DNA of 32,000 nucleotides. It comes from Xanthomonas campestris pv. campestris str. ATCC 33913. Lineage in GTDB: Bacteria; Pseudomonadota; Gammaproteobacteria; Xanthomonadales; Xanthomonadaceae. The translations under genes and the position numbers were made by a program. A model generated the notes under the pieces. The model saw nothing but the letters and a program-made list of their open reading frames with translations, had not been told where the DNA came from and did not search any database. Shown here one piece after another: positions 4,522 to 19,691 of this stretch. The DNA lies in the NCBI RefSeq assembly GCF_000007145.1, contig NC_003902.1, positions 4,793,426 through 4,825,425 of the forward strand. The letters are read 5' to 3'. Each line of letters begins with the position of its first letter. Position 1 is the first letter of the stretch.

Positions 4522-4956
4522 TCACTGCGGCGCGACGCGATCGGCCGGGTGATGGATGCCGTCTTCCACCGGCACGGTGATGTTCAACGCATACGGGTTG
4601 ACGCCCTCCAGGCAGCCGACGTTGTAGCCGTATTCGTTGGGATTGGAACGCCGGCGGTGATGCGTGTAGATGCCGCACACCCCGCAGAAATAATGCGCGG
4701 CTGCATGCGTGTTGAACTGGTACAGCCGCAACACGTCCTCGCCTTGACGCACGTGCAGGCCTTGCAGCGGCACCGAGGCCACGATGGCCCCGCGCCGGCG
4801 ACACATCGAGCAATCGCAGCGGCGCGGATCCACCAGGCCGTGCGGCAGGTCCAGATCGATCTGCACCGCCCCGCAGTGGCAATTCAACCGATGCACGGCG
4901 CCCAGCGTGATATCGCCCACCTTGTGCGTGCTGCGCCGCAAATGCCGCTCGCTCAT
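4522..4956 (-). CDS. GFA/CENP-V family protein (glutathione-dependent formaldehyde-activating-like, Zn-Cys cluster)
   Basis: MSERHL..LNCHCGAV..RRCDCSMC..YFCGVCG shows the typical GFA cysteine pattern. The ATG at 4956 overlaps the xthA stop (ATGA). The longer 243-aa version in the track is Arg/Pro-rich junk. Confidence 0.8.
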   Translation of the reverse strand: MSERHLRRSTHKVGDITLGAVHRLNCHCGAVQIDLDLPHGLVDPRRCDCSMCRRRGAIVASVPLQGLHVRQGEDVLRLYQFNTHAAAHYFCGVCGIYTHHRRRSNPNEYGYNVGCLEGVNPYALNITVPVEDGIHHPADRVAPQ

Positions 4957-5732
4957 GCGCCTGCCTCGGCCAACCGCACCCACGCCGGTGCGTGGTCGCT
5001 GGGGCGCTCCCAGGTGCGTGGTTCGCGGTCGATGCCCGCTTCCACCGCGCGGGCGCGCAGCGCATCCGACACCAACGTCAGGTCGATGCGCAGCCCCAGG
5101 TTGCGGCGGTAGGCGGCCTGGCGGTAATCCCACCAACTGAAGTGGCCGGCATCGTCGTGATGCAGGCGAAAAGCATCGTGCAGGCCCAGCGCCAGCAGCT
5201 TGTGCAGGGCGCCGCGCTCGGCGGTGGAAGTGAGGATGTGGTTGTCGCTCCACACCTCCGGCTCGTACACGTCGCGCGCGTCCGGGGCGATGTTGAAGTC
5301 GCCCAGCACCACCAGCTGCGGGTGGCGCTGCAGCTCCTGCGCGATCCAGTCGTGCACCGCCTCGAGCCAGCGCAGCTTGTAGGCGTACTTGTCGGTGCCC
5401 ACGTCCTGGCCGTTGACCACATACAGATTGATGATGCGCACACCATCGACGGTGGCGGCGATGACGCGCTGCTGCACGTCATCGAACCCGGGGATGCCCA
5501 TCTGCACCTCCAGCGCCGGCGAGCGCGACAGGATTGCCACGCCGTTGTAGGTCTTCTGCCCGCAGAACACGCTGCGGTAGCCCAGCGCGGCCAGTGCCGC
5601 ATCCGGGAACTTGTGGTCTTCCAGCTTGGTTTCCTGGATGCCCACCACGTCCGGCGCAAAATCCGCCAGCCACTGTTGCAGGTGCGGCAGGCGCACGTTG
5701 AGCGAGTTGACGTTCCAGGAGGCAATCTTCAT
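4953..5732 (-). CDS. xthA: Exodeoxyribonuclease III
   Basis: MKIASWNVNSLNVRLPHL..GIQETKL..NGVAILSR..LGDFNIAP..SDHAPAW, full-length at 259 aa, with all ExoIII/AP-endonuclease motifs. Confidence 0.95.
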   Translation of the reverse strand: MKIASWNVNSLNVRLPHLQQWLADFAPDVVGIQETKLEDHKFPDAALAALGYRSVFCGQKTYNGVAILSRSPALEVQMGIPGFDDVQQRVIAATVDGVRIINLYVVNGQDVGTDKYAYKLRWLEAVHDWIAQELQRHPQLVVLGDFNIAPDARDVYEPEVWSDNHILTSTAERGALHKLLALGLHDAFRLHHDDAGHFSWWDYRQAAYRRNLGLRIDLTLVSDALRARAVEAGIDREPRTWERPSDHAPAWVRLAEAGA

Positions 5733-5821: not shown

Positions 5822-6382
5822 TCATGGACGCGGTTTGACCACCCGGTATTGGCTGCGCTCGCCGCTGCGTGGCCCGCGCGCATCGACATTGGCGCACAAG
5901 CGGTCACCACATAGAACGACATCGCTGTTGGCCACCGCCTGCAGCACCTTGGCATCGAGCCGGTAGCGCGTCAGGTCCCGGCGCGCTTCGGTCAGCAGGT
6001 ACACACTCGAGGCACAGGCCAGCACCGTCGCAACGATCAACCCGGCGCAGGTGATCCAGGCACGGGTGAGCCACCGCCTGCGCAGCGCTTCGTGCGCGGT
6101 TTCCACCGCCTGCAAGGCCGTGCCGGAGCGCGAGATCACCGCATCCAACCGGCGCGCGGCGGGCGCGAGACTGCTATCGAGCGCCTGCTGCCAGGCCTGC
6201 TGCAGCTGCGGCACCGCGCCGCCGACCAGGCGATTGATGTCATCGCCGTTGCGCGCAGCCAGGGCGCGCAGCGCTGCCATGTCCCGCTCCAGCGCCGCAT
6301 GCTGGCGCTGGTCGCGCGCTTCGATGGTGGCAGCCAGCGTGCCCAACGCCCTGGCCAGGTCCTTCAGCTCTTCTTGGTGCAT
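5822..6382 (-). CDS. Hypothetical coiled-coil protein with one TM segment and a Cys-containing C-terminal tail (tentatively MbeB/MobB-like architecture)
   Basis: 186 aa with host-like high GC3 and the RBS ggaga 6 nt upstream of the ATG. The N-terminal 110 aa are Ala/Leu/Gln-rich and helical. A TM segment (WITCAGLIVATVLACASSVYLL) follows, then the tail VVLCGDRLCANVDARGPRSGERSQYRVVKPRP. The gene starts 60 nt downstream of the lipase gene. Confidence 0.6.
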   Translation of the reverse strand: MHQEELKDLARALGTLAATIEARDQRQHAALERDMAALRALAARNGDDINRLVGGAVPQLQQAWQQALDSSLAPAARRLDAVISRSGTALQAVETAHEALRRRWLTRAWITCAGLIVATVLACASSVYLLTEARRDLTRYRLDAKVLQAVANSDVVLCGDRLCANVDARGPRSGERSQYRVVKPRP

Positions 6383-6442
6383 CCGTCGTCTCCGTCACCG
6401 TGCATCGCCAACGCGCATCCGCCTTGCCGCACATACCGGTGC

Positions 6443-8752
6443 CTACCCGCCACCGCCGCCTCCACCACCGCCGCCCCCTCCTCCGCCATCACCGCCACCG
6501 CTATCGGCCGCGGCCATAGCCGGCCCCTGGTGCATCAGGCTCATCACGCGTACCGGCCCGTGCGCCATCTGCACATCGGCCGGCTGCATGTCGGCCGGGG
6601 TCCAGGTCACCTGGTTGGTCACCGCCTCCTGCTCGCGCTGCTGCATCAACGCCTGCCCCTCCTGCAGCAGCGCTTGCCCTTCGGGCGAATGCCGGATCCG
6701 CTCGGCCGCCTTGAATACCCCCGCCTCGTCGTGATTGCGCAGCGCCTGCAGCATCGCGTCGATGTCCGCATCGCCGGTCCGCAGCGCCGTCGGCGCGTGC
6801 GGATCCTGCTGCGCAGCCGTGCGGCCCTGGCCCAGGACCTGACGGGCCTGCTGTTCTTCCGCATCGATCCGCGCCTGCAGGCTCGGCACCACCGTCTCGG
6901 TCATCAGGTGGCGTTCCAGCGCCTCGTGCAGCGAGCGTTGGCCATGCACCGACAAGGTAGCCGTCTGCGCCACATTGCCAAGATTGTGCGGGGTGCTGGG
7001 CGTGAACCGGAGTTGGGTGGCAGCACCGGCGGCCAGTAGCGCACCTTCCAGCGCACCGGCGCTGGGCGCATGCGCGGTGAGGCCGGCGAGCGCATCGCCG
7101 CCGGCATCCAGGGTGCGATTCAGGCGACCGCCAACAGCGTCCAGCACCTGTTGCGGCAGCGCCGACGCGGTACGCACCTGATCCGCGGCGGCCGTTGCCA
7201 TGCCCGCGGCCGTGTGCATCAAGGTCTCTGCCTGCCGCGCGCCATCTTCGCGCAGCCGCGCGGCGTGCTGCTCGGCCTGCTGGCGGTCCGCCTGGGCCTG
7301 GCGCTCCAATGCCTTGGCCTGCTCCAGCAGGGCGGCCTGTGCGGTATCGGGCAACCAGCGTGCGGCACCGCGCAGTGCGACCGCGGCGGTGTCCTGCGCC
7401 TGCGCCTGGGCCTGCAACGCCCAGCGTTGCGCGCTGGCATCCAGCTCGCCGGCAACCGCACGGCCTGCGGCCAGGCCACGGCCCAGCGTGTCGCCACCGG
7501 CTTCGAGTGCTGCGCCCGTAGCGCTACCGCCATGGCGCACGGCCGCACCCCCCATCTGCATGCCGCGCGCCGCGCCGTCGCCGGCCGCATCCAGCGCCGC
7601 ATCGCCCGCCCGCCCCAGCGCGGCGCTGTGTTCGCCCAGGCCACGTCCGATCTGCGCACCGGCAGCGCCGGCCCGCAACACGCCCAACGCCGGGCCAGCC
7701 AGGTACAGGCTCTCCTGCAAGGTCAGCGCCTGCGCGCGGTCCACCAACGCGCCATCCTGGCCCTGCATCTTGGCCGGCAACACCGGCTCGATGCGGCCGG
7801 CGGCCAGCGGCAGCTGCTGCAGCAGCTGGGCGGTATCGCCCTGCGCCAGCCGGTCCACGAACGCATGCACCGCCGGCTGTGCATTCACCGGCACATCGCG
7901 GGTCAGCGCTTGGTCGAGCAAGGCCTGCCCCTCCGGCAAGCTGCGCATCAGGGTGGCGGTGTCGCCCATCACCGCCGCCAGCTGCTGGCGCCGCGCCGCA
8001 TCCAGCCGGTGGATGTTGTCCTGGATGCCGTTGTTGAGCATTTCGCCCTGGACTTGATAGGCCACGACGGTGTCGGCGGTGTCGTAGAGCTGTACACCGG
8101 GTGTGCTCTTGGCAAAACGCTGCGCAGTCGCCGGATGCAATCCTGCGGCGTTGAACGTGGTTGCCGGCACGCCACTCACCGCAGAGCCTGCCGAGCCCAT
8201 GCCGCCGCCCAGGGAATGGCCGGCAATTTCGAAGTCGACGTTCTGCAACTTTAATTGCGATGCCAAACGCATGGCACGGTCGTAGTAGTCGGTCTGCATG
8301 CCAACCGACTGCGGGAAGTTGTTGGCCAGAAAATCTTCGGCACTGGTATCGCGCAGGCCATTGGCGGTCGCGACCTCTCCCGCTGAGCCTTTGTAGACCA
8401 CGGTGGGCTTGTAGTCGGGCCCGAGGATTGCCGGATCGGGAATGTAGATTTCGGCACGGAAGCCCGAGTCGTCAGGCTTCAGGTAGTCTTTCAATCTATC
8501 CGAGCCAAGCGAGCGCAGCTCAGGAATACGGCTTTGCAGTAACTCGATGTTTTCGCTCCCACGGATCCATCCAACAGGAGAATGGCCGAGTCCCTTGGCC
8601 GAATCGTAGACATCGTCTGCAAGCGAAGCCATCTCATGCGCGTGATAGAGCTGTTGCAGCTCGGCAGCACGCGATACAGCCTCTGCTGTGCCGCTGGCAC
8701 GCAGGTCGTTCAACAGTTGCTCGCGTCGTCTGTGCAGATCTGGCGTTTGCAT
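6443..8752 (-). CDS. Large alpha/beta-hydrolase lipase/phospholipase (GHSLGG nucleophile elbow) with a long low-complexity C-terminal region and poly-Gly tail; candidate secreted toxin
   Basis: 769 aa with no N-terminal signal peptide (MQTPDLHRRREQLLNDL). Residues 40-260 are lipase_3/DUF2974-like: ASLADDVYDS, FEIAGHSLGGGMGSAGS (Ser180, nt 8213-8215), TTFNAAG. Residues 330-600 are Ala/Gly/Gln-rich. The C-terminus reads ..HSPEGQALLQEGQALMQQREQE..SGGGDGGGGGGGGGGGGGG*. Confidence 0.8.
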   Translation of the reverse strand: MQTPDLHRRREQLLNDLRASGTAEAVSRAAELQQLYHAHEMASLADDVYDSAKGLGHSPVGWIRGSENIELLQSRIPELRSLGSDRLKDYLKPDDSGFRAEIYIPDPAILGPDYKPTVVYKGSAGEVATANGLRDTSAEDFLANNFPQSVGMQTDYYDRAMRLASQLKLQNVDFEIAGHSLGGGMGSAGSAVSGVPATTFNAAGLHPATAQRFAKSTPGVQLYDTADTVVAYQVQGEMLNNGIQDNIHRLDAARRQQLAAVMGDTATLMRSLPEGQALLDQALTRDVPVNAQPAVHAFVDRLAQGDTAQLLQQLPLAAGRIEPVLPAKMQGQDGALVDRAQALTLQESLYLAGPALGVLRAGAAGAQIGRGLGEHSAALGRAGDAALDAAGDGAARGMQMGGAAVRHGGSATGAALEAGGDTLGRGLAAGRAVAGELDASAQRWALQAQAQAQDTAAVALRGAARWLPDTAQAALLEQAKALERQAQADRQQAEQHAARLREDGARQAETLMHTAAGMATAAADQVRTASALPQQVLDAVGGRLNRTLDAGGDALAGLTAHAPSAGALEGALLAAGAATQLRFTPSTPHNLGNVAQTATLSVHGQRSLHEALERHLMTETVVPSLQARIDAEEQQARQVLGQGRTAAQQDPHAPTALRTGDADIDAMLQALRNHDEAGVFKAAERIRHSPEGQALLQEGQALMQQREQEAVTNQVTWTPADMQPADVQMAHGPVRVMSLMHQGPAMAAADSGGGDGGGGGGGGGGGGGG

Positions 8753-8830
8753 GCGATCAATCCTTGCGCATGGAGGTCAAAGCAGCGGAATCTCTTTTTC
8801 TTCCGAGGGGAAGTGGAACGCCTTGCGCAT
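8742..8830. repeat. Copy A of an 89-bp duplicated block (3' end of the ankyrin gene, intergenic RBS region and first 11 nt of the lipase gene)
   Basis: It matches 9764-9852 at 88 of 89 positions. The only difference is catgGagg versus catgAagg. Confidence 0.95.
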
Positions 8831-9637
8831 GCGTTTGTAGTGCTCCGGCATCGCAGGTCGCACATATCCACGCGCGAGCAGCCATTCCTGGCATTTTTTC
8901 TGCCAGCGTGGATCCTGAGGGTTTCCCGGATGCCAATATATGGAAGAAATTGTACGCGAATCCATTTTGGCTAACGGAATATCCCCGGAATACTCAATCC
9001 TCGGGTCCGCCCCGTGCTCCAACAACCAGAAAACCCGCTCAAATCCGCCGGACCCCGAGTAATTCTCCAGAATGGTTCCACCCATTCCGGCCAATGCATT
9101 AACGTCGGCTCCCTTTTTCACTAACAACTGGATGTTCGACCACTTATCCTGCTTGATAAGTGCGTGGAAAAGCAGTGTCTCGCCATTTGAATTGTAAGTA
9201 TTCGGATCCCCGTCGTGATCGAGCAGCAGCTTGAGGTAAACAGAATCATCTTGCTCGGCTGCCCACACCATTGCGCGGTTGCGGTAACGTCCCTTGAACC
9301 GCGTCGTCTCCTGCAAAGGATGCAGTTGCCCAGCATTCGGATCGGCCCCATTCTCCAGCATCGCCTTCAACCCGGTCGGGTTGTGGGTGAAGATCGGCCA
9401 GAACAACAGTGGATATCCATCCTTGGAGAAGATCCTGTCCGGATTCACACCCTCCACCTTCATCAGCCGCCGCACTTCCTCGGCATCGCCCTGCTCGGCC
9501 GCCAAAGCCAGTGCCAAGGCCTTGGGGTCGCTGAAGTTGCGCTCGGGCGCATAGCGCGATTGCGCGGCAGGCGAACAGCCGGTGATGGCCAGCAGCACCA
9601 CACAGCAGAACCGGATGAAACAATGCGATGGCTTCAC
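8777..9637 (-). CDS. Ankyrin-repeat lipoprotein (proximal paralog); candidate periplasmic immunity protein
   Basis: The GTG start at 9637 is preceded by GGAGG (9647-9643). The leader (M/V)KPSHCFIRFCCVVLLAITGC carries the lipobox L-A-I-T-G-C. Ankyrin-like repeats follow: ..GDAEEVRRLMKVEGVNPD.., LKAMLENGADPN, LLLDHDGDPN, LLVKKGADVN, WLLEHGADP. The 313-aa version in the track adds an implausible extension before the signal peptide. Confidence 0.8.
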   Translation of the reverse strand: MKPSHCFIRFCCVVLLAITGCSPAAQSRYAPERNFSDPKALALALAAEQGDAEEVRRLMKVEGVNPDRIFSKDGYPLLFWPIFTHNPTGLKAMLENGADPNAGQLHPLQETTRFKGRYRNRAMVWAAEQDDSVYLKLLLDHDGDPNTYNSNGETLLFHALIKQDKWSNIQLLVKKGADVNALAGMGGTILENYSGSGGFERVFWLLEHGADPRIEYSGDIPLAKMDSRTISSIYWHPGNPQDPRWQKKCQEWLLARGYVRPAMPEHYKRMRKAFHFPSEEKEIPLL

Positions 9638-9763
9638 GCGCGCCTCCGTTGCGGCTGATTGCATAGGGACAGGATGGTAAGCCAGTTGGCCGCTTGCAGC
9701 GCAGGACCTGCGCTGCATTTCGTGTGCGCTGCGTCTCCTCGGTGCTGCGGTGCCGGCTGGGTG

Positions 9764-9852
9764 GGCGTTTGCATGCGATCAATCCTTGCGCATGAAGGTC
9801 AAAGCAGCGGAATCTCTTTTTCTTCCGAGGGGAAGTGGAACGCCTTGCGCAT
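9764..9852. repeat. Copy B of the 89-bp duplicated block, including a fossil copy of the lipase RBS/ATGCAAACGCC start
   Basis: See copy A. Offset is 1022 bp. Homology to the lipase gene stops 11 nt into the coding sequence. Confidence 0.95.
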
Positions 9853-10647
9853 ACTCCGATAATTTTCTGGCAATGGAGGGCGCTCATATCCCCGCTTCAA
9901 CAGCCATTGCTGGCACTGTCGCTGCCACTGCGGGTCCTTGGGATTGCCCGGATGCCAAAAGATGGCCTCAATTATTCCAGAGTCTTTGAGATGGACAGGG
10001 TTGCCATAAGCGAACTCGATGGTTGGATCTGCACCATGCTGCAGAAGCCAGTAGACGAAGTCGAAGCCACCGCGGATTGCATAGGCGGCCGTAATGCTAT
10101 TTCCCATTCCCGCAACCGCGTTTATGTCCGCACCGCGCTCGACAAGAAGCTTTATGTTGTCCCATTTGTTCTGCTTGATAAACGCGTGGAATAACAGGCT
10201 CTCGTTGTTTGCATTACGCGTATTGGGATTACCGCCATGATCCAGCAGCATTTTGAGATAGATCGGGTCGTCCTGCTCGGCTGCCCACACCATGGCATTC
10301 GGATTATTGCGAACGCCTCGATCCAGCGTTTGATAAGGCAGCGCCACATTCGGATCAGCCCCATTGTCCAGCATCGCCTTCAGCCCGGCCGGGCTGTGGG
10401 TGAAGATCGGCCAGAACAGCAGTGGATATCCATCCTTGGAGAAGATCGTGTCCGGGTTCACGCCCTCCACCTTCATCAGCCGCCGCACTTCCTCGGCATC
10501 GCCCTGCTCGGCCGCCAGCGCCAGCGCCAGGGCCTTGGGGTCGCTGAAGTTGCGCTCGGGCGCATAGCGCGATTGCGCGGCAGGCGAACAGCCGGTGATG
10601 GCCAGCAGCACGATGCAGCAGAACCGGATGAAACAATGCGATGGCAT
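9799..10647 (-). CDS. Ankyrin-repeat lipoprotein (distal paralog); candidate periplasmic immunity protein
   Basis: The ATG at 10647 is preceded by GGAGG. The leader MPSHCFIRFCCIVLLAITGC carries a lipobox. The ankyrin repeat series matches the proximal paralog. The N-terminal ~80 aa and the last 17 aa (MRKAFHFPSEEKEIPLL) are nearly identical to the paralog, while the centre has diverged. Confidence 0.8.
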   Translation of the reverse strand: MPSHCFIRFCCIVLLAITGCSPAAQSRYAPERNFSDPKALALALAAEQGDAEEVRRLMKVEGVNPDTIFSKDGYPLLFWPIFTHSPAGLKAMLDNGADPNVALPYQTLDRGVRNNPNAMVWAAEQDDPIYLKMLLDHGGNPNTRNANNESLLFHAFIKQNKWDNIKLLVERGADINAVAGMGNSITAAYAIRGGFDFVYWLLQHGADPTIEFAYGNPVHLKDSGIIEAIFWHPGNPKDPQWQRQCQQWLLKRGYERPPLPENYRSMRKAFHFPSEEKEIPLL

Positions 10648-10715
10648 CCCACGCGCCTCCGTTGCGCCGTGTCCGCTGGCTCGACGCGGTAAGGGTGACC
10701 GCTGCACCGCGCGGC

Positions 10716-10737
10716 TTGCCACAGATTGCTGTGGCAA
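10716..10737. repeat. 9-bp perfect inverted repeat ttgccacag-attg-ctgtggcaa upstream of the distal ankyrin gene; candidate operator or hairpin
   Basis: Read directly. It lies 69-90 nt upstream of the ATG at 10647, within the 375-bp gap that must carry the islet promoter. No function is demonstrated. Confidence 0.3.
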
Positions 10738-11022
10738 CGAACTGGCGAATGCAAGCGATACTGACGGACGCAGCATAGCGCAGACGGGTGGCCTGGCAAG
10801 CGCATCGCGCGCTTACTTTACGGGTATAGCCGCATCGGCAGACCGGTGCGATGGGGCCACGGTGTGCCGGCCGGCACGTCACCGAGGCCGATAAAAGCTT
10901 GGCGAAGTCTCACCATGGAACTGCGAACGATGCGGGCAGTCGTGCGTGGACGCGTCATCCACGCCGCGTCCAGAAAGGCGGCCCCTGTCTGGCACCCGCT
11001 TGTCAGGTTTTGTCAGTGGCTT

Positions 11023-12276: not shown

Positions 12277-14938
12277 AGTCCACTCCAAGGTAATAGGCAC
12301 GGCCGTTGTCGAGCTGCTCGCGCATGAGTTGTTGCTCTGCACCGATCACGCGGGTGAGCCGCGCATTGCTGAGGTTGCGGCCCTGCAGGGTGAGCCGCAG
12401 CTGCGCACTCAGGCGCCAGGCCAGCTGCGCGTCGTAGCTGGTGATGGCGTCGTAATAGCGGTCGTTGACGCGGTTGTCGGTGGCTGCGGAAATCAGCTGC
12501 GCGCCGGTGTAGTTGGCGCTGATGCGCGCACTGAACGGGCCCACGTCGTACAACAGCGACGCGTTGGCGCTGCGCTTGGGCGATTCCATCAGCCCGGGCA
12601 AGCCGCGCTGGCTGCCATCGGCCATCTGTATCTCGGCCGTGCGCGGGTCGAGCACGGTGAGGTTGAGCATCGCGCCCAGGTTGGACCAACCGCCGGGCAG
12701 AAAATCGAAGCGGCTGTCGATGGCGGTGAATTCGATGCCCTGCACCTGCGCGGTGCCGGCATTGATCGCCTGGGTGGTGGTCACCTGGTAGGTGCCGCTC
12801 AACCCGCCGGGATCGCGCTGGGTGTCGGTGCTGGTGGTGCGCACGATCTCGTCGTCGATGCGCTTGTGGAACAGCGCCACCGACAGTTGCGAGTCGCGGT
12901 CCGGGTACCACTCCAGCGACAGATCCAGGTTGTCCGAGCGGCGCGGGCGCAATTGCGGGTTGGCGATGCTGCGGTTGATGGTGAAGCCGGTGACATCCAC
13001 CACCGGGCTGCTGTTCTGGCCGATGTCGCCATAGGTGGGCAAGCCAATCGTGCGGCTGCCGGCCATACGCAGCTTGAGTGCCTGGGTGATGTCCCAGGCG
13101 AAGTTCGCCGATGGCAGCAAGAAGCGGCGGTCGCTGTCGGCCGATTGCTGGACGTAGTTGCTGGTGCTGGTCAGCGGCTGCGGCACCGCGCTGAGCACGG
13201 TGCGCTGCAGGTATTCGTTGCGCAGGCCCAGCGTGGCCTGAGTGCGTGCGCCATGCCAGACACCCATCGCGTAGGCGGCGCCATTGCGCTCGTCGATGCG
13301 GAAATCACTGATCGCGCTGTTGCGCGCGTTGGTGTTGGCCAGCACGTAGGCGCCCGGTGCGGCAGCAGCGAATGCGGCCACCTTGCCGGGGTCGATCAGC
13401 AGCAGGCAGTTGAAATCGGCGAACGGGCAGATACGCGCGTCATCGGTACCAACAGTGGCCAGCGTCACGCGCCCGGATGGATTGCGGCGCACTTCGTCCA
13501 GGTTGTAGCGCTGTTGCAGATCGCGGTACTGCAGTCCTGTGCGCAGCCCCCAGCCTTGCGCGTCGGCATCGGCGTTCTGGCTGTAATCCAGCTTGACCGT
13601 GGTGGTGTCGGTGCTGCTCTTCTCAGTACGGGTCAGGAAGTACGACTGCGTATAGTTGGCCGGGTTGGCGTAGTACGCCGGGTCGGCCAGCGTGATGGTG
13701 GGCCGCGTGTTGCTGCCCAGCGCATAGCCAAAGCCCAGCCGCGCGGACGCGGCCGCCGCAAAGACGTCTTCGCGGGTGTCCTGCACATAGCGCCCGGTGG
13801 CGCGGTTGAGCACCAGATCCACATGGCCTTCGGGATTGAGCCGGAAGCTGCCGCCAAGCTGGGCGTAACGCAGCGTGCGGGTCTGGTCGAAACGGTTGGC
13901 ATCCACCTGCGCGCTGCCCTGCGCGAACCGGCCGCTGTCGGCATCGGTCACCGCCGCATTGCCGACGCGGTTGATCCACTGCGAACGGCGCTGCTCGTCG
14001 TTGCTGTGCTCGAACACGCCGGCGCTGAGCGCAAGTTTCAGGCTGTCGCCATCGTCGTATTCCAGCTTGCCGAACGCGCTGCGGCGCTGGCGCACGTTGT
14101 CGTAGCTGAGCGGGCGAAACCGGTCCGGCGCGATCGCCAGACCATCGGTATCCAGTGCCGGGGTGAGGTCCTGGCGCCGGCCGTTGGCGTAGTAGCTGTA
14201 ACTGTCGATGGCGGTGTTCAACGACGACGAATCGCGGCGGAAGTAGTCCGCAGACAGCACCACGCCGAAGTGATTGTCCGGCCCGAAGGTCTGGCTGAAA
14301 CTGCCTTGCACCTGCCCGGACGGCGTGCTGCCCTGCAGCTGCCGGCGGTTTTCCCAATCGGCCACATTGGCCCGCACGGTGGCGAAGCTGCCGTCGTGAT
14401 CGAAGGCACTGCGCGTGCGCAACGCGGCGATGCCGCCAATGGCATTGCTGTCCATGTCGGCGTTGAAGGTCTTGTAGATATCCACCTGCTGCGCGAGCGA
14501 GGCGGGAATGACGTCCAGCGATTGCACGCGCCGGCTGGTTTCGGTGGACGGCAGCGCCACGCCGTCGATCAGCACCGTGTTGTAGTCCGGGTTGAAGCCA
14601 CGCAGGCTCATGAACTGCGCTTCGCCGCGGCCGTTGTTGACCACCATCGACACGCCGGGCACGCGCTGCAGCGCCTCGCCCAGGCCGAAGTCCGGGATCG
14701 AGCCGATGTCATCGGCCGCCACGCCATCGGAGACCACCGCCGCCTCGCGCTTGGCGCCAATCGCCTGGCGGATGGACAGGTGCTGGCCGGAGACCTGCAC
14801 GGCATCCAGCTGCACCGGGGCGGTCTCGCCCCCGGCCGCGGCAACCACGGGTTCGGCGGCCTGCGCGCTCAGGCTGGCCGCGACACCCAGCGCCAGCAGA
14901 CTGCGACAAGGGCAAAGAAAGGTGCTGAAACGTGACAT
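12266..14938 (-). CDS. TonB-dependent outer-membrane receptor
   Basis: MSRFSTFLCPCRSLLALGVAASLSAQA is a signal peptide. The plug reads LDAVQVSG..DDIGSIPDFGLGEALQRVPGVS..RGEAQFMSLRGF. A long beta-barrel ends ..YYLGVDYAF (terminal aromatic). 890 aa from the ATG at 14938. Confidence 0.92.
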   Translation of the reverse strand: MSRFSTFLCPCRSLLALGVAASLSAQAAEPVVAAAGGETAPVQLDAVQVSGQHLSIRQAIGAKREAAVVSDGVAADDIGSIPDFGLGEALQRVPGVSMVVNNGRGEAQFMSLRGFNPDYNTVLIDGVALPSTETSRRVQSLDVIPASLAQQVDIYKTFNADMDSNAIGGIAALRTRSAFDHDGSFATVRANVADWENRRQLQGSTPSGQVQGSFSQTFGPDNHFGVVLSADYFRRDSSSLNTAIDSYSYYANGRRQDLTPALDTDGLAIAPDRFRPLSYDNVRQRRSAFGKLEYDDGDSLKLALSAGVFEHSNDEQRRSQWINRVGNAAVTDADSGRFAQGSAQVDANRFDQTRTLRYAQLGGSFRLNPEGHVDLVLNRATGRYVQDTREDVFAAAASARLGFGYALGSNTRPTITLADPAYYANPANYTQSYFLTRTEKSSTDTTTVKLDYSQNADADAQGWGLRTGLQYRDLQQRYNLDEVRRNPSGRVTLATVGTDDARICPFADFNCLLLIDPGKVAAFAAAAPGAYVLANTNARNSAISDFRIDERNGAAYAMGVWHGARTQATLGLRNEYLQRTVLSAVPQPLTSTSNYVQQSADSDRRFLLPSANFAWDITQALKLRMAGSRTIGLPTYGDIGQNSSPVVDVTGFTINRSIANPQLRPRRSDNLDLSLEWYPDRDSQLSVALFHKRIDDEIVRTTSTDTQRDPGGLSGTYQVTTTQAINAGTAQVQGIEFTAIDSRFDFLPGGWSNLGAMLNLTVLDPRTAEIQMADGSQRGLPGLMESPKRSANASLLYDVGPFSARISANYTGAQLISAATDNRVNDRYYDAITSYDAQLAWRLSAQLRLTLQGRNLSNARLTRVIGAEQQLMREQLDNGRAYYLGVDYAF

Positions 14939-14966
14939 GGCGCAACCAATGAGGGCAGAAGCTGCC

Positions 14967-14997
14967 AATTTAATAACTTACTGTGAATTAATTATTT
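14967..14997. promoter_or_regulatory. AT-rich block (4 G/C in 31 nt) in the TBDR/ROK divergent region; probable promoter/operator
   Basis: aatttaataacttactgtgaattaattattt, counted by hand. It lies 29-59 nt upstream of the TBDR ATG and 49-79 nt upstream of the ROK ATG. It is the most AT-rich stretch I saw in the window. The function is inferred from position only. Confidence 0.45.
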
Positions 14998-15045
14998 CAG
15001 CCGCAGCGGCTATGCTTGCGCGTTGCTCCCCCGCCCTGCTCGCCC

Positions 15046-16194
15046 ATGCCGTCCTCGACCGCCTTCGCCGCGCCCGCGCACCGCCAGCCCTTCGAAGGGC
15101 TGAGCCTCAATGAGCGCGACATGCTCAACCGCCTGCGCCTGGCCGGCGTGCTGACCCGCGCCGACCTGAGCCGCGGCACTGGGCTGACCGTGCAGACCGC
15201 GGTGCGGTTGATCGAAAGCCTGCAGGCGCGCGGCATGGTGCGCATGGGCGAGGGGCTGGCGCGGCCCGGCCGCGGCAAGCCGGGCATCGCCGTGTCGTTG
15301 CGCCCCGGCCACGGGCACACGCTTGGGGTCTCGATTGCCACCGACGCGCTGACCCTGGCGCTGATGGACTTCGCCGGGCAGGTGCTCGGCGTGCAGGAGC
15401 TGCCGCTCACCGATCCCAGCGCCGCCGGCGTGCTGGCGCAGCTGCAGGCCGGCGATGCTGCGCTGCTGGCCAGCCTGCCGCACGCGCCCGGCCCGCGCCT
15501 GGGCATCGGCGTGGCGATGACCGGGTTTTTCACCGGCCAGGACGGGCGCATCAATCCGCCCGACCCGCTGCGTGCGCTGGGCGAGTTCGCCCTCTGCCCG
15601 TGGCTGGCGGAGGCCTGCGCGCAGCCGGTGTGGATGGACAACGACGGCAGCGTGGCCGCCGCCGGCGAGGCGATGCTCGGAGTAGGCCGGCGTCATCGCG
15701 ACTTCGCCTATCTGTATCTGAGCTACGGCCTGGGCGGCGGCCTGGTGATCGATGGCAAGGTGCTACGCGGCGCGCGCGGCAACGCCGGTGAATTCGCCGG
15801 CATGTTGCCCGCGCAGCGGCTGGAACGCGCCACCCTGGAATTGCTGCGCGAGCTACTGGCCGAAGACGGCGTGGAGCTGCCGGATATCCGCGCGCTACTG
15901 GCCGCCTACGACCCGCGCTGGCCGGCAATCGAACGCTGGCTGGCGCGCAGTGCCCCGGGTGTGTCGCTGATCGTCTCGGCCATCACCGCGGTCTGCGACC
16001 CGGAGGCCATCGTTTTCGGCGGCCGCCTGCCTGCGGATCTGGCACACCGCCTGATTGCCGCGGTCCGCATCGACAACCAGCCACGCCGCGGGCAGGCGCG
16101 CCCGATCCCACTGCTGCTGCCGGCCGAAGCACCGGCCGATGCCTGTGCGATTGGCGCGGCGACATTGCCGTTGCAGGCGCGCTATTTCGGTTGA
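15046..16194 (+). CDS. ROK-family transcriptional regulator (N-terminal winged HTH plus ROK sugar-kinase-like domain)
   Basis: The HTH reads LTRADLSRGTGLTVQTAVRLIESLQARGMV. ROK core motifs are MDNDGSVAAAGE and YGLGGGLVIDGKVLRGARGNAGEFAG. The start is ambiguous: ATG at 15046 or TTG at 15016. Confidence 0.85.
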   Translation: MPSSTAFAAPAHRQPFEGLSLNERDMLNRLRLAGVLTRADLSRGTGLTVQTAVRLIESLQARGMVRMGEGLARPGRGKPGIAVSLRPGHGHTLGVSIATDALTLALMDFAGQVLGVQELPLTDPSAAGVLAQLQAGDAALLASLPHAPGPRLGIGVAMTGFFTGQDGRINPPDPLRALGEFALCPWLAEACAQPVWMDNDGSVAAAGEAMLGVGRRHRDFAYLYLSYGLGGGLVIDGKVLRGARGNAGEFAGMLPAQRLERATLELLRELLAEDGVELPDIRALLAAYDPRWPAIERWLARSAPGVSLIVSAITAVCDPEAIVFGGRLPADLAHRLIAAVRIDNQPRRGQARPIPLLLPAEAPADACAIGAATLPLQARYFG

Positions 16195-16994
16195 GCCATT
16201 GCACCGCGGTTAGGTGCGTCATCGGCTGCACGACGACAGCAGGCATCGAAGATCTCCCACGCCAGGGTGCGTGCCTGCGCGCCCTGCTGTTCGCTCAAAC
16301 CGTCGAGCAGTTCCTCCTCGCCTTGCAACGCTGTGGAAGCATCGTGCGATGACCCCGCAGGTTGGCGCGCGGCCAGGCGCCAGGCCGCGGCATACACCGG
16401 GTCAGGCGCACGCAGCAGTGGTGATGCCACCACCTGCGCCAGGCTCTCGATGGCATCGGGCTGCCCCTGCAGCGCCAGCAACTCCAGCGCGCTGACGATC
16501 GAGGCCATCTCTCGTTCGTCATTGGGCGCCAGCCGTGCCTGCTGGCCGGCGGGTGTCGCGGCGGCAGTGGCTTGCATCACCTGCGCGGCACGTTGCGCCA
16601 ACAGATAGCGCTGCGCGGCCAGGTCGCCACGCGCTGCCGCCGTACGCAGCAGCGCGTCGACCTGTTCTGGCGGCATCGCCGTGCACAGCGCCTGTGCAGG
16701 CTGCGCGGTTGCGCCACGGGCGATCTGCGCCGTGCGTTGCTGCAGCCGCTCGGTGCAGGCAAGCGCCTGCATCGCAGTGTCGAACAGGTCGCCTGATGTT
16801 GCGTGTCGAACGGGCGCACGAGCGGCGACCTTCACCGCCGCTGGTACGGCCACGACGGCTGCAGCACGGCCCGCGGAGTTCGCCGCACCGTGCATGCACC
16901 ACGCCACCACCAGCGCGGCGACTGCCAACACGGCCGCCAACACCCAGCGTGATCTGCCGACGGCAGCGCGCGCACCGGGGACGGACATCTCCAT
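16182..16994 (-). CDS. Hypothetical membrane-anchored Ala-rich protein (possibly degenerate Sel1/TPR-like repeats)
   Basis: 270 aa starting 12 nt after the parvulin stop, with agga upstream. The N-terminal TM segment is RWVLAAVLAVAALVVAW. Helical segments such as AAARGDLAAQRYLLAQ and LALQGQPDAIESLAQV follow. The 3' end overlaps the convergent ROK gene by 13 nt. Confidence 0.55.
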   Translation of the reverse strand: MEMSVPGARAAVGRSRWVLAAVLAVAALVVAWCMHGAANSAGRAAAVVAVPAAVKVAARAPVRHATSGDLFDTAMQALACTERLQQRTAQIARGATAQPAQALCTAMPPEQVDALLRTAAARGDLAAQRYLLAQRAAQVMQATAAATPAGQQARLAPNDEREMASIVSALELLALQGQPDAIESLAQVVASPLLRAPDPVYAAAWRLAARQPAGSSHDASTALQGEEELLDGLSEQQGAQARTLAWEIFDACCRRAADDAPNRGAMAQPK

Positions 16995-17006
16995 CGGTTC
17001 CTGCCT

Positions 17007-17891
17007 TTAGCGCAGCGCCGCTTCCAACGCGGCATGATCGAACTGCAACGGGTTGGCCTGCCGCAGTCGCTCCAGCGCGGCCGTCGCCGCCTGCTCACGC
17101 AACTGCACCTCGATCTGCCCGCGTGCAGTCTCCAGCGTGGCGGGGATGCGCGCGTCCACACGGATCAGGTGATAGCCCTCTGGCCCACGCACCGGTGCCG
17201 ATACGTCGCCCACGCCCAGCGCCTGGACCGGGGCAGCGAAGACATCGGCCACGTTGCGCAGGAAGATCGACGACAGCTCGCCGCCCTCTGCGGCCGTGCT
17301 GCCATCGTCGGATTCGCGCTTGGCCACTTCCTCGAACGGCGTGCCGCTGTCCAGCTGACGCTTGAGCTGCTGTGCACGGGCCAATGCCTGCGCATCGCTC
17401 AGCGGCGCCCCACGGCGGGCATCGCCTTGCGGCTGCAGCGCCACGAACACATGGCTCAAGCGGACTTCGTCATAGTCGTGCGGGTGCGCGTTGAATTGCG
17501 CCTGCACTTGCGCTGCATCGATGTGGGCCGTGGTGCGGGCGCGCCGCTGCATCGCGTCGGCAAGGATGGCGTCAGTGGCCTGGCGGAGCTGCACAGCGAC
17601 CACCGGGTCGTCTTGCAGGTGCACCTGACGTGCCTGATCCAGCAGCAGCCGCCTGTCGGCAAACGCGCGGACAAATGCCGGGTCAGCCGCACCGGCCGGG
17701 TTGGCGCCCCGCGGCAGATCAGCCAGCGCAAGCGCGCGATATTCCGGTGCAGTAAACGCCTGCTTGCCGATCTGTAACACCGTGGTGACGCTGTGGGATA
17801 CGCCGGAATCGGCGGTGGCGGCCTGCGCCGACGGCACGCCAGCAATCAGACCCAGCGCAAGCGCGCCGGACAAACAAAGGGACTGCAACAT
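17007..17891 (-). CDS. Periplasmic peptidyl-prolyl cis-trans isomerase, parvulin (PpiC/SurA-like) family
   Basis: MLQSLCLSGALALGLIAGVPSAQA is a signal peptide. The parvulin domain reads VRLSHVFV..AQQLKRQLDSGTPFEEVAKRESDD..GGELS..VSAPVRGPEGYHLIRV. The ATG at 17891 was chosen over the 322-aa extension. Confidence 0.8.
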   Translation of the reverse strand: MLQSLCLSGALALGLIAGVPSAQAATADSGVSHSVTTVLQIGKQAFTAPEYRALALADLPRGANPAGAADPAFVRAFADRRLLLDQARQVHLQDDPVVAVQLRQATDAILADAMQRRARTTAHIDAAQVQAQFNAHPHDYDEVRLSHVFVALQPQGDARRGAPLSDAQALARAQQLKRQLDSGTPFEEVAKRESDDGSTAAEGGELSSIFLRNVADVFAAPVQALGVGDVSAPVRGPEGYHLIRVDARIPATLETARGQIEVQLREQAATAALERLRQANPLQFDHAALEAALR

Positions 17892-17978
17892 GCAAGAGAT
17901 CTCCGTGATGACAGGCCCCGACGACGGGCGATGCCGGCGTCGGGGCCACTGGCCCGCATGGGCCGGGAAAGGCACCAG

Positions 17979-19076
17979 TTAGTCGTGCTTGTGGGCTGCC
18001 TGCAGATACCGGATCGCGGCCTTCGGATCATCAGTGGTGATCAGGCCGAAGGCCTGGCTGTGGACGATGTAGTCCAGATTGCCGCGGTTGTCTGCGGTAT
18101 CGCGGCCACCGGAATAGGAGAAATACAGATCCGACAGGGCGTAGCAGCAGGCGCCGCTGTTCTGATAGAACTTGCCGGCAGACGGGCCGTCCGGAATCGC
18201 CTGGAACACGCCGACACGATAACCACGCTCGCGGATGAAATCGGCATCGCTCTGCAGCAAGCCACGGAGTTGCTTGACGTTGATCTCCATCGTCTGGTTA
18301 CCCGCACTCATCCATGCCGAGATCGTCTGGCGCACATTGATCTTGCCCAGCATGTTGGTCGTGAACACTGGAATGCCGACCATGCCGCTGCCATCTGCAC
18401 GGTAGGCATCGCGACTGGTATACAGCGTCGCATTGACCTTGGCGGCGACGTAGCTTGCGGATGCCACGCCGAACTGGCTCTCGGCGGCCTTGCGCACCGC
18501 GCGTACCGTGGCCGCATCCTTGATGTCGAACACCATCGGGGTACGCAAGTTGTGCTGCTTGTAATAGGCGAACAGCTCATCCACGCGCGGCACGTGATAG
18601 CCAGTGGCGGTGCGGCGGTCCGGAGTCAGCAGGAATAACTGGCTGACCTCCGACCATGGGGTGACCAGAATGGATGGATTGACGCCCTGGTTGGTGATCG
18701 GGTCGTACTTCACCCCCGGATGGTGCTGCCACACAGTGGTGGTGCGGCCCAGGTTGTAGTCATGCAGCAGCACCGGCACGCCGTCACTGGTGAGCTTGAC
18801 GTCAAGCTCCACGCCGTCCATGCATTGGTCGTTGGCAGTCTGCAGTGAGCCGCGCGAGTTTTCCGGCATGTCGGGGATACCGGCGTATTTGCCCCATAGG
18901 CCACGGTGCGCCAGCACAACGGTATTGGAGGAGTTGAACAGGATGCGTTGCATTTTGAGGCTAGAGCTGTCGCTGCAGGCGGCCAGCGCCAGCTGCGGCA
19001 GTGCAGTCAGCACGGCCAGTGCGCCGAGCAGGCGGCAGGCGCGGGCCAGCGGATGTGGAGCAAGGATGGTAGACAT
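17979..19076 (-). CDS. Glycerophosphodiester phosphodiesterase (GDPD) family lipoprotein
   Basis: MSTILAPHPLARACRLLGALAVLTALPQLALAAC carries the lipobox LAAC. GDPD motifs are VLAHRGLWG..PENS and GVELDVKLTSDGVPVLLHD. 365 aa from the ATG at 19076. Confidence 0.8.
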   Translation of the reverse strand: MSTILAPHPLARACRLLGALAVLTALPQLALAACSDSSSLKMQRILFNSSNTVVLAHRGLWGKYAGIPDMPENSRGSLQTANDQCMDGVELDVKLTSDGVPVLLHDYNLGRTTTVWQHHPGVKYDPITNQGVNPSILVTPWSEVSQLFLLTPDRRTATGYHVPRVDELFAYYKQHNLRTPMVFDIKDAATVRAVRKAAESQFGVASASYVAAKVNATLYTSRDAYRADGSGMVGIPVFTTNMLGKINVRQTISAWMSAGNQTMEINVKQLRGLLQSDADFIRERGYRVGVFQAIPDGPSAGKFYQNSGACCYALSDLYFSYSGGRDTADNRGNLDYIVHSQAFGLITTDDPKAAIRYLQAAHKHD

Positions 19077-19638
19077 GGTCTCTGTGTCCCGGTTCGTAGG
19101 TGCAGGAAGGGCAAGGGATGGACGAGAGCCGATGGGTCGACGCAATCGGCGAACTCGCTTGCAGCGCACTCGCCAGCCGGTGGATACCGGGGAGAGGCCA
19201 AGCCGGGCGTGATCAGCGTTCGGCTTGCGGGCCAATTTAGTCACTCTCGATGACTTAATTTCTTCGCTGGTGTTGCCGTTTTCTACGACCACGCAGCAGT
19301 GGCGCGAAAAACGAAGTAGATGACGGCATCACCCGAATCGGCGCGAGATGAGGCGACGCCTGACCGCATGCAGATGCGTGCACATCGGGCATCGCGCGCC
19401 GACGTCGACGGTCAGGGGTGTGGTGGTCAGGATCGGGACTTTCGGCCTTCGATCCGCGACAGTCGTCAGATACGTGCATCGCGTGCGCGCTGCGCAGACG
19501 GTCGGCTTCTGGAGAAGGGTTCGGCTGCGCCTTTGCACAGCGCAGCCGCCGGTGGACGCGCAGGCGCTCATGAACCCATCGGCGCGAGGTATCGCAATAC
19601 GCCGGTAGCGTCGGTCGCTCTCATCTGCCCCAAACGCA

Positions 19639-19663: not shown

Positions 19664-19691
19664 GCGTGACAGCACTCAGTGATGTGGTGGA

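Follow-up and report, generated by a model that had tools for sequence, protein, structure and literature searches.

A predicted Tle6-type lipase and tandem ankyrin lipoproteins in Xanthomonas campestris, with a candidate alternative to the XVIPCD delivery domain

Introduction

What is the role of four co-oriented genes that lie on the minus strand of the Xanthomonas campestris pv. campestris ATCC 33913 chromosome, between xthA and genes for a TonB receptor and NAGPA? We analysed a 32,000-nucleotide stretch of this genome (contig NC_003902.1, positions 4,793,426 to 4,825,425; hereafter the window, to which all coordinates refer unless a contig is named) in which these genes encode a 186-residue membrane protein (P186), a 769-residue lipase and two ankyrin-repeat proteins, termed Ank2 (proximal to the lipase gene) and Ank1 (distal). 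An original prediction, made from the letters alone, had read the locus as an antibacterial effector/immunity module. The open reading frames (ORFs) were found in place, as that prediction had described them:

5822-6382, minus strand: P186 gene, 186 aa (ORF listing)
6443-8752, minus strand: lipase ORF, 769 aa (ORF listing)
8777-9718 as called, 8777-9637 from the probable GTG start, minus strand: proximal ankyrin ORF, Ank2 (ORF listing and GGAGG box)
9799-10776 as called, 9799-10647 from the probable ATG start, minus strand: distal ankyrin ORF, Ank1 (ORF listing and GGAGG box)

Homology, synteny and population patterns together make it very likely that the lipase is a toxin and that the ankyrin proteins provide immunity to it. 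The explanation that we favour for the locus as a whole, and consider rather probable, is a cassette for interbacterial competition in which a Tle6 lipase is paired with Tli-type immunity proteins and delivered by the type IV secretion system (T4SS) with which Xanthomonadales kill other bacteria (X-T4SS) through a C-terminal domain that we call class B; the chances of the delivery step, considered by itself, seem to us roughly even. Translocation by the X-T4SS requires the XVIPCD, a domain which binds the VirD4 coupling protein (PMC6536674, PMC8740702). In the scheme proposed here the lipase would be synthesised in the cytoplasm, having no signal peptide, would probably leave by the X-T4SS, with class B acting as an alternative recruitment module that replaces the XVIPCD and P186 as a dedicated partner (serving the inner-membrane complex of the T4SS as adaptor or chaperone), and would hydrolyse, from the periplasmic side, phospholipids in the membranes of a rival Gram-negative cell. 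The ankyrin lipoproteins would be exported to the periplasm, where they would neutralise lipase that comes from sister cells or is leaked by the producer, Ank2 guarding against the lipase allele of its own strain and Ank1 against those of other strains.

The lipase has a Tle6-type hydrolase fold split by a helical insertion

The 769-residue protein is a Tle6-type lipase (Pfam PF26363, 'Phospholipase-like') with predicted enzymatic activity. Residues 28-275 match Tle, a lipase of the Enterobacter cloacae type VI secretion system (T6SS; PDB 7UBZ, chain 7ubz_B, and 9CYS), with E = 5.1e-30 in phmmer, and a profile built from 52 sequences of the family matches Tle with E = 2.4e-43. The AlphaFold2 (AF2) model has a mean predicted local distance difference test score (pLDDT) of 74, exceeding 90 over most of residues 1-240 as well as over residues 290-340, and its best PDB match by far in a Foldseek search is 9cys_A (E = 7.6e-11, template modelling score 0.61). 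Database entries for near-identical X. campestris proteins bear the name 'phospholipase' together with a precomputed PF26363 assignment; our own Pfam and NCBIfam scans of the lipase returned nothing useful, the Pfam release scanned being older than PF26363. The protein can be divided as follows:

7733-8752, minus strand: alpha/beta-hydrolase core of Tle6 type, lipase residues 1-340 (homology to Tle, AF2)
6953-7720, minus strand: Ala/Gly/Leu/Gln-rich helical-hairpin insertion, lipase residues ~345-600 (Glu-to-His spacing, AF2, composition)
6809-6940, minus strand: 'ERH615LM...PS...E633' helix, lipase residues 605-648 (conservation, pLDDT 91-97)
6611-6787, minus strand: class-B three-helix domain, lipase residues 656-714 (hidden Markov model, AF2)
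6446-6610, minus strand: disordered tail, lipase residues 715-769 (pLDDT below 50)

The nucleophile elbow GHSLGG, to which the original prediction had drawn attention, spans residues 178-183 and places the nucleophile at Ser180. The catalytic triad of E. cloacae Tle is Ser341/Glu393/His448 (PMC11470151); Ser180 and Glu237 align with its first two members, and the predicted triad of the window lipase is Ser180-Glu237-His615. Ser180 is found in 52/52 sequences of the family, as are an acidic residue (Glu or Asp) at position 237 and His615, the last being accompanied by equally invariant P623, S624 and E633. Moreover, the 27 short Tle6-type lipases, which come from T6SS-style loci, end in the motif '[DA][RK]H[GA][MI]xQ[AV]I..IE.QK', equivalent to the helix running from His448 to Lys461 in Tle, and 'ERHLM' of the window lipase matches this motif. 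His296 ('AVHAF') was considered as the catalytic histidine and rejected: it is conserved in just 24 of the 52 sequences, whereas His615 is invariant and fits the Tle motif.

Glutamate and histidine are separated by 378 aa in the window lipase as against 55 aa in E. cloacae Tle. The AF2 model nevertheless returns residues 610-645 to the hydrolase core with a pLDDT of 91-97, and the return of this distant helix implies that a helical insertion of about 260 aa interrupts the hydrolase fold. The insertion itself is modelled as long helices with moderate to low confidence, and could plausibly form an amphipathic, lipid-associating helical bundle. We also noted a weak match of the family profile over this region to apolipoprotein A-IV in the PDB (E = 1.3e-3) and a sub-threshold Pfam Apolipoprotein match (E = 3.2) in one homologue, P0014.

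The N-terminus is hydrophilic, as had been claimed. The first 30 residues have a mean hydropathy of -0.83, the maximum over any 19 aa is 1.07, and we found no signal peptide in the lipase, whether of Sec or Tat type. No Pfam match in the lipase corresponds to a T6SS module (an N-terminal VgrG-linking domain, PAAR, MIX or Rhs). Since the lipase fold begins at residue 1 without such a module, what the window protein has in common with Tle is the Tle6 toxin domain and not the status of a T6SS effector. In Tle, which is activated by a cytosolic form of its immunity protein, the Arg180-Lys461 pair serves an immunity-dependent methylglyoxal crosslink. Arg10 of the window lipase aligns with Arg180, a position at which 14 of the 52 family members have Arg, and residues 617-648, which follow His615, contain no Lys.

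Both ankyrin proteins are Tli-type lipoproteins arising from a tandem duplication

Pfam Ank_2 matches both upstream proteins (Ank1, E = 3.6e-15; Ank2, E = 9.5e-15), which share the leader ..HCFIRFCC[IV]VLLAITG/C, a basic and hydrophobic stretch ending in a lipobox (the slash precedes the lipobox cysteine). The claim that these are ankyrin lipoproteins thus stands, with a correction to the starts as called: translation probably begins at ATG 10647 for Ank1, with GGAGG 8 nt before it, and at GTG 9637 for Ank2, also preceded by GGAGG, which gives precursors of 282 and 286 aa, respectively. With lipoprotein signals, both proteins are expected to stay in the envelope of the producing cell.

The immunity protein of Tle, Tli, is an ankyrin-repeat lipoprotein (PMC11470151), and residues 73-255 of Ank1 match it (PDB 7ubz_A) with E = 1.5e-10 over 183 residues. 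Ank1 and Ank2 are 69% identical to one another, their first ~100 residues being almost identical and their repeat regions diverged. At the nucleotide level they belong to a tandem duplication in which direct repeats lie 1013-1022 nt apart, with 94% identity over the 5' 300 nt and 70-80% elsewhere. The repeat unit extends into the start of the lipase gene by 11 nt, which survive as the remnant 'ATGCAAACGCC' after the Ank1 stop; the Ank2 gene itself ends 25 nt short of the lipase ATG. A promoter-like site stands at the 5' end of the array and is a possible operon promoter on the grounds of position alone.

8742-10785, minus strand: tandem duplication, two copies of a ~1.02-kb unit comprising an ankyrin gene and the lipase-start junction (direct repeats)
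10772-10799, minus strand: promoter-like site TTGCCA-16-TATGCT, 5' of Ank1 (consensus scan; such sites are no more numerous here than in shuffled sequence)

Lipase and ankyrin genes travel together well beyond this species. Among long-type lipase loci of species-representative genomes for which upstream sequence is available, 40/40 have between one and five ankyrin homologues directly upstream, on the same or the divergent strand and 40-65% identical over their full length; these loci come from the Lysobacterales genera Xanthomonas, Luteimonas, Lysobacter, Rhodanobacter, Pseudoxanthomonas, Stenotrophomonas and Dyella. Short-type loci, from genera including Serratia, Enterobacter, Erwinia, Pectobacterium, Burkholderia and Vibrio, show the tle-tli arrangement of effector followed by immunity gene: 27 of the 35 have one to three ankyrin homologues downstream, found as near-full-length tblastn matches at 24-35% identity. 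Both ankyrin proteins are Tli-type immunity proteins, and neutralisation of the lipase is their predicted activity.

Lipase and proximal ankyrin alleles covary within X. campestris

We compared nine X. campestris loci at the population level. Nucleotide identity is 0.98-1.0 across most of the lipase gene and its flanks, falling to 0.72-0.86 in two segments of the lipase N-domain (codons ~71-97 and ~188-217) and to 0.74-0.90 where the two ankyrin genes encode their repeats; within the species, hypervariability is confined to these places. At least three allele classes of the lipase N-domain can be distinguished, and over the nine loci they covary with the class of the proximal ankyrin gene at r = 0.99 and with that of the distal gene at r = 0.00, a proximal coupling that exchange of a single cassette would explain, since the two regions are contiguous, and that is expected of a cognate pair. 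The distal copies of some strains are 96-98% identical to the proximal copies of others, and the window Ank1 shares 92% identity with the proximal type that is most common. Because Ank2 covaries with the lipase while distal copies match foreign proximal ones, Ank2 is the probable cognate immunity protein, and Ank1 is probably an orphan immunity protein directed against lipase alleles of other X. campestris strains. Strains carry two or three ankyrin copies. One strain (L082:4079-6956) has three tandem ankyrin genes; the proximal one represents a fourth type of allele and shares 98% identity with the distal copy in strain L089.

Homology to Tle in sequence and predicted fold, ankyrin adjacency at 40/40 and 27/35 loci, and this co-diversification all bear out the effector/immunity reading of the original prediction. 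They also speak to a different explanation, namely that the lipase is a virulence factor secreted by a type II or type III secretion system to act on plant or other eukaryotic lipids, with the ankyrin proteins unrelated in function. X. campestris is a pathogen of plants, effectors directed at eukaryotes commonly contain ankyrin repeats, and NCBIfam does report matches to Legionella Ank effectors, which are weak and far below cut-off. Such an enzyme is nonetheless hard to reconcile with the missing Sec/Tat signal, with ankyrin proteins that lipoprotein signals retain in the producer's own envelope, and with a universal lipase-ankyrin linkage and allele covariation that fit immunity. We consider it the least probable of the explanations discussed here. 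Under the immunity reading, co-diversification and the presence of orphan-immunity copies would imply that the lipase is still being delivered between strains.

An unrelated three-helix domain takes the place of the XVIPCD

How might a lipase of this kind leave the cell? The C-termini of its relatives offer a clue. Among 43 species-representative orthologues, 34 end in an XVIPCD according to our own hidden Markov model (HMM), and PF20410 confirmed this in two of them (P0024, 1.6e-26; P0066, 3.1e-20). In the remaining nine, from Luteimonas, Pseudoxanthomonas, Rhodanobacter and Xanthomonas sp. XNM01, as well as in X. campestris and X. melonis, the same position after the conserved His helix is occupied by class B. 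The original prediction had sensed an X-T4SS-like character in the Gln-rich tail of the window lipase, a hunch that sits well with the XVIPCD of these 34 orthologues, and had failed to recognise an XVIPCD in the protein itself. We likewise detected none in the window lipase, either with PF20410 (no match even at E = 10) or with our own XVIPCD HMM. The idea that class B is a divergent or truncated XVIPCD was ruled out by an hhalign probability of 0.2%.

The C-terminal modules also bear on whether this is a Tle delivered by a T6SS, as in E. cloacae. The closest solved and characterised relative is indeed a T6SS effector. The window lipase differs in having its fold at residue 1, free of VgrG-linking, PAAR, MIX or Rhs modules, and in a gene order of immunity before effector, which is that of X-T4SS immunity proteins and effectors (X-Tfi/X-Tfe), the order at T6SS-type loci being effector before immunity; furthermore, 43/43 orthologues from the Lysobacterales carry either an XVIPCD or class B at the C-terminus. 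T6SS delivery is therefore a very improbable account of the window protein. X. campestris pv. campestris, moreover, is among the xanthomonads that are not known to have a T6SS.

Class B comprises ~50 aa with the consensus ..LDR.L.A...GD......A...L..TP.A..WL..G.A.L, and is defined here provisionally as a helical domain that ends 6-55 aa from the C-terminus and is followed by a Gln-rich tail. An HMM built from 25 sequences matches residues 656-714 of the window lipase with E = 1.6e-17, a region that AF2 models as three helices with a pLDDT of ~80. No counterpart of class B was found in Pfam, NCBIfam or the PDB, and a PDB search with the isolated C-terminal 170 residues of the lipase gave chance matches only. 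An exhaustive search of 1.84 billion representative proteins with the class-B HMM returned 68 matches at E < 1e-3, unlike a word-indexed protein search with the class-B alignment, which returned none. Sixty-five of the 68 lie outside the set of lipase homologues, and in 56 of these a full-length domain ends 6-53 residues from the C-terminus. The Pfam content of the 35 carriers scanned includes Lipase_3-like domains, PG_binding together with lysozyme/SLT-like domains, NlpC/P60, DUF6782 and M91-like metallopeptidases, and DUF6973; two Tle1-like (DUF2235) lipases on the metagenomic contig L091 carry class B as well. Class B is, on this evidence from sequence comparison, a modular C-terminal domain on proteins whose N-terminal domains, where Pfam recognises one, are of diverse toxin types. 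One predicted protein, P0179 (248 aa, metagenomic), joins a VirB9/CagX-like N-terminus with a signal peptide to a C-terminal class B, and may be a recombinant or an assembly chimera.

The tails that follow class B are Gln-rich and end in GPVMRM, GPSLAR, ..LAR or ..MSR, and XVIPCD-containing orthologues end alike. In published XVIPCD tails the last residues are basic, hydrophobic or small, and the final six positions contain no acidic residues and are needed for translocation (PMC8740702). The tail of the window lipase consists of a Gln/Glu-rich stretch, the segment 'GPVRVMS...GPAM', and then 'AAADSGGGDG14', an acidic and poly-Gly end; its 'GPxM' ending resembles the ends of both XVIPCD and class-B tails. 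The poly-Gly run (6446-6500) is encoded by mixed GGN codons and varies from about 11 to 14 Gly by strain, with an internal Ser in one allele; in the P0003 allele a frameshift reads through it. One homologue, P0016, has a 'GGGGGDGGG' extension after its XVIPCD tail.

A membrane protein and virB genes adjoin class-B effectors

P186, whose ATG is preceded by GGAG at a distance of 7 nt, consists of a helical N-domain of ~105 aa, one transmembrane helix (residues 112-130, hydropathy 2.13) and a ~50-aa C-terminal CGDxLC hairpin; its AF2 model has a pLDDT of 46, which is insufficient to search for related folds. Close homologues are confined to X. campestris, X. nasturtii and their relatives. Distant homologues of the same architecture are encoded directly 3' of class-B effectors on contigs L005, L010, L091 (three copies), L097 and L101; among them are genes of Pseudoxanthomonas japonensis and Rhodanobacter sp. 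L36, in which the effector is a lipase orthologue. Those on L097 and L101, which had no part in building the P186 HMM and score E = 7.5e-35 and 2.8e-35 with it, adjoin a metallopeptidase-like and an unrelated class-B effector. Overall, a P186-like gene follows 8/18 class-B modules, representing four toxin types, and 0/34 XVIPCD loci (Fisher p = 5.8e-5, for loci that are not phylogenetically independent), from which it follows that P186 tracks the class-B domain and not the type of toxin. We infer that P186 is a class-B-specific inner-membrane partner with the function of an adaptor or chaperone, although it might act in regulation or in an immunity-like capacity. A relationship of P186 to the trans-intoxication protection factor XAC2611 was rejected, XAC2611 being a secreted, cysteine-rich DUF4189 protein.

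The strongest tie of class B to a secretion system comes from L091 (Ga0209233_1000128), a metagenomic contig of 210 kb. Here, the class-B carrier P0154 lies directly downstream of virB9-10-11-1-2-3-4-(5)-6 and is followed by the two Tle1-like lipases, so that three class-B effectors stand beside the virB genes. Each of the three P186-like genes on this contig is followed by a VirB6 paralogue. The best match of the L091 VirB10 is that of the X. citri X-T4SS (6GYB, E = 7e-103, versus 1e-41 for TrwE), and on a variant contig, L093, a DUF4189 gene stands beside the same effector as in L091; DUF4189 is the Tpf/XAC2611 family reported at almost all X-T4SS loci. Viewed as a whole, L091:7764-21512 contains, downstream of a complete X-T4SS-like virB operon, three repeated modules, each made up of a short ORF (172-184 aa), a class-B effector gene, a P186-like gene and a gene for a VirB6 (TrbL) paralogue of ~290 aa. 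It is unusual for this type of T4SS to have several VirB6 paralogues linked to effectors. Our scan of metagenomes for class B returned two short contigs, one of which was informative.

Other class-B neighbourhoods were more varied. A few kb downstream of the class-B module on L097 (15121-17727) are genes with SUKH_5/SMI1_KNR4 and Imm-NTF2-2 domains, families typical of immunity to polymorphic toxins, which suggest a wider toxin/immunity island. On L098 (7678-8343), a gene with the Pfam domain 'XAC0095_dom' lies ~1.7 kb upstream of the class-B effector P0168; XAC0095 itself is the neighbour of the X. citri effector XAC0096, which loosely links class-B loci to X-T4SS effector neighbourhoods.

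We tentatively propose that class B and its P186-like partner form a second recruitment route into the X-T4SS that is independent of the XVIPCD, in which an inner-membrane adaptor would work alongside or instead of binding to the all-alpha domain of VirD4; we rate the chances of this somewhat below even. Class B might instead be exported by another machine, type I-like or undescribed, with P186 as a component and one toxin plugged into two systems. The domain bears no similarity to the XVIPCD and has a membrane-protein partner of its own that is never seen at XVIPCD loci, the extreme C-terminus of the window lipase is unusually Gly-rich for a T4SS substrate, and Tle6-like polymorphic toxin domains are known in fusion with both T6SS and type V secretion system (T5SS)/CdiA delivery modules. 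Set against this, no ABC transporter, membrane fusion protein (MFP), TolC or other non-T4SS secretion genes were found beside the class-B modules examined, the sole adjoining secretion genes being virB genes and VirB6 paralogues; the Gln-rich GPxM[RS] tail chemistry is common to XVIPCD effectors; and the RTX nonapeptide repeats GGxGxD are missing. Export by such a route is decidedly unlikely.

Is the window lipase still a delivered weapon?

Several observations weigh against our proposal of an active cassette served by the X-T4SS. The window lipase lacks an XVIPCD, and its tail runs past the usual 'GPxM' end into the acidic, poly-Gly extension. No P186-like gene accompanies 10 of the 18 class-B modules, the loci counted share ancestry, and the physical linkage of class B to virB comes from one metagenomic organism (L091/L092). 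No secretion-system genes, those of a T4SS included, were found in the 32-kb window. X-T4SS loci are listed for X. campestris B100, 8004, ATCC33913 and 756C (PMC6536674), with a virB locus that is fragmented in 8004 and ATCC33913 (PMC6536674). Lipase genes are also broken in some strains: clusters P0010-P0013, with 33 member sequences, are frameshifted to 509-510 aa and end before His615, and at L083:6985-9290 the gene is split into parts of 207 and 540 aa. Together, frameshifted alleles and fragmented virB loci suggest that some lineages may be shedding the weapon. The ankyrin genes remain intact in strains with a frameshifted lipase, which fits loss of the weapon with immunity kept.

The same facts can be read as signs of a retired or repurposed effector, which has lost its XVIPCD, whose class B is no secretion signal, and which is kept as an addiction-like pair or a cell-internal 'defence' factor, immunity being held mainly against the lipases of other strains. 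Beyond the missing XVIPCD, the atypical tail, the fragmented virB loci and the frameshifted alleles, which are not rare and leave the ankyrin genes in place, a precedent exists in Lysobacter and X. citri for toxic 'atypical T4Es' that have no XVIPCD and are neutralised by the product of a neighbouring gene, one of them being dispensable for killing by the T4SS (PMC10989847). A vestigial role is less easily squared with the conservation of class B and its locked position on 56 unrelated proteins of toxin type with T4SS-like tails, with the three copies beside a virB operon, or with the co-diversification of lipase and cognate immunity and the orphan immunities, which imply ongoing delivery between strains. 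The window allele, moreover, is intact with all its catalytic residues present. We judge retirement unlikely, although of the alternatives it deserves the most weight, and retain delivery by the X-T4SS as the preferred reading.

Comparison with known effector systems

The pairing of lipase and ankyrin protein has already been described as Tle6/Tli, and is here set in an X-Tfe/X-Tfi architecture. With E. cloacae Tle-Tli (proposed, with Serratia marcescens Slp, as the 'Tle6' family) the window pair shares the hydrolase domain with GHSLGG, the Ser-Glu-His triad and the '[DE]RH[GL]M' motif, an ankyrin-repeat lipoprotein immunity of the same family, an effector without a signal peptide and, presumably, membrane phospholipid on the periplasmic side as target. 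It departs from Tle-Tli in that the lipase domain is N-terminal and not C-terminal, has no VgrG-linking domain, contains the ~260-aa insertion between Glu and His, and shows no evident counterpart of the Arg180-Lys461 crosslink pair. The gene order is also reversed, with the immunity gene first and duplicated, and the presumed delivery module, which is C-terminal (an XVIPCD in the relatives and class B in the window lipase), suggests a T4SS and not a T6SS.

The likeness to X-Tfe/X-Tfi pairs, such as X. citri XAC2609/2610 and the predicted phospholipases XAC0574 and XAC2885, lies in the predicted N-terminal envelope toxin, the putative C-terminal delivery region, the Gln-rich tail, a lipoprotein immunity gene just upstream across a very short gap, and a position away from virB; most orthologues of the window lipase are in fact annotated as XVIPCD-domain proteins. 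The window pair is distinguished by replacement of the XVIPCD with an unrelated three-helix domain, by the additional downstream membrane-protein gene, and by a lipase of a family other than that of XAC0574 (440 aa) and XAC2885 (395 aa). We came across no X-Tfi of ankyrin type: among the full-text papers searched, a single one contains XVIPCD, lipase and ankyrin, and there ankyrin appears in the reference list only.

Two further comparisons are instructive. The ankyrin array resembles the orphan-immunity arrays of contact-dependent inhibition (CDI), Rhs and T6SS loci in having tandem paralogues beside one toxin, an extra copy that is near to a foreign cognate, and diversity concentrated at interface regions; it differs in lying upstream of the toxin, in having two or three copies, and in containing no displaced toxin fragments beyond the 11-nt remnant of the lipase start. 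The 'atypical T4Es' Le1637/Le1636 and XAC2247/XAC2246 (mLife 2023) are homologous to X-T4SS effectors and toxic, have no XVIPCD, and are countered by the product of an adjacent gene. Le1637, however, is a 321-aa PhlA-like extracellular phospholipase A1 outside PF26363/Tle6, is not required for T4SS killing, and has not been described as having an alternative C-terminal domain or a partner protein. Its S186/E243 spacing raised the question of whether it is the same protein as the window lipase, which the difference in family answers in the negative.

For recruitment through an adaptor there is an analogy in the Legionella Dot/Icm system, where classes of C-terminal signal are read by distinct adaptors (IcmS/IcmW/LvgA, DotM) at the inner-membrane coupling complex. 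P186 has no sequence relationship to these, and its role as an adaptor is hypothetical.

The original prediction had suggested that the combination of genes might be undescribed. This does not apply to the lipase and ankyrin pair; it appears to apply to the class-B domain and its 186-aa partner. Papers on Tle6 describe the lipase domain fused to T6SS modules (VgrG, PAAR, DUF4150, Rhs) and to CdiA; a T4SS is missing from the fusion list of the 2023 Tle6 preprint, and the word 'Xanthomonas' from the 2024 Tle6 paper (PMC11470151). In papers up to 2026 (e.g. PMC13600162), X-T4SS effectors are identified almost exclusively by the XVIPCD. If our proposal is correct, catalogues built in this way miss a class of T4SS toxins that comprises lipases of Tle6, Tle1 and Lipase_3 type, peptidoglycan hydrolases and metallopeptidases, and a second C-terminal module would add to the weapons known from Xanthomonas, Lysobacter, Luteimonas, Stenotrophomonas-like bacteria and their relatives in soil and on plants. 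Class B would also open a direct way to study how different signals are read by T4SS coupling complexes. The Tle6/ankyrin pair would have been ported from T6SS/CdiA scaffolds to that of a T4SS, its catalytic fold re-engineered by a 260-aa helical insertion, and the co-evolving lipase/immunity allele pairs and orphan immunities of X. campestris would offer a natural test system for effector-immunity specificity.

Conservation, composition and surroundings of the locus

The four minus-strand genes form one conserved unit that is a fixed feature of X. campestris. The order TonB receptor, NAGPA, two ankyrin genes (three in one case), lipase, 186-aa gene, xthA and GFA is shared by 10/10 X. campestris contexts, which disposes of the notion of a strain-specific islet; the cassette is flanked by xthA (4953-5732, Exo_endo_phos) on one side and the NAGPA/TonB-receptor pair on the other. 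The window is 99.95% identical to X. campestris CP155999.1 over 15.7 kb. Its other genes are of housekeeping character (ROK, PpiC, a solute symporter, DcaP, acetyl-CoA synthetase, DUF4424, GH43 and an aldo-keto reductase).

The GC contents that had been counted by hand in four 60-nt segments proved exact (0.417, 0.450, 0.567 and 0.650). They belong to a dip to 0.55-0.60, against a window mean of 0.66, that is confined to both ankyrin genes (0.56-0.57) and the first ~250 codons of the lipase gene (0.59); the rest of the lipase gene is at 0.73 and the 186-aa gene at 0.69. This dip had been taken to point to horizontal acquisition, for which it is weak evidence: the ankyrin genes and the lipase N-domain are 4-8 GC points lower in nine other Lysobacterales loci too, so that the depression is a property of the gene family and no proof of recent acquisition. 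Given also that the locus is fixed in the species, we do not accept recent transfer as an explanation. A second local dip (GC about 0.61, below that of its neighbours) coincides with a 437-aa ORF at 17979-19292 on the minus strand, which has an apparent signal peptide and by eye (HRG...ENS...ELDV...LHD) resembles a glycerophosphodiester phosphodiesterase.

Finally, five of ten X. campestris genomes (L081, L084, L085, L087 and L089, at about 14000-20500) have a large RHS-repeat toxin gene (1600-1850 aa) and a second YD-shell protein between PhoD and GidB. Both are missing from the window, where the equivalent site is at about 1700-1880, and from the other five genomes, so that this site, 8 kb away from the lipase cassette, shows an insertion/deletion polymorphism.

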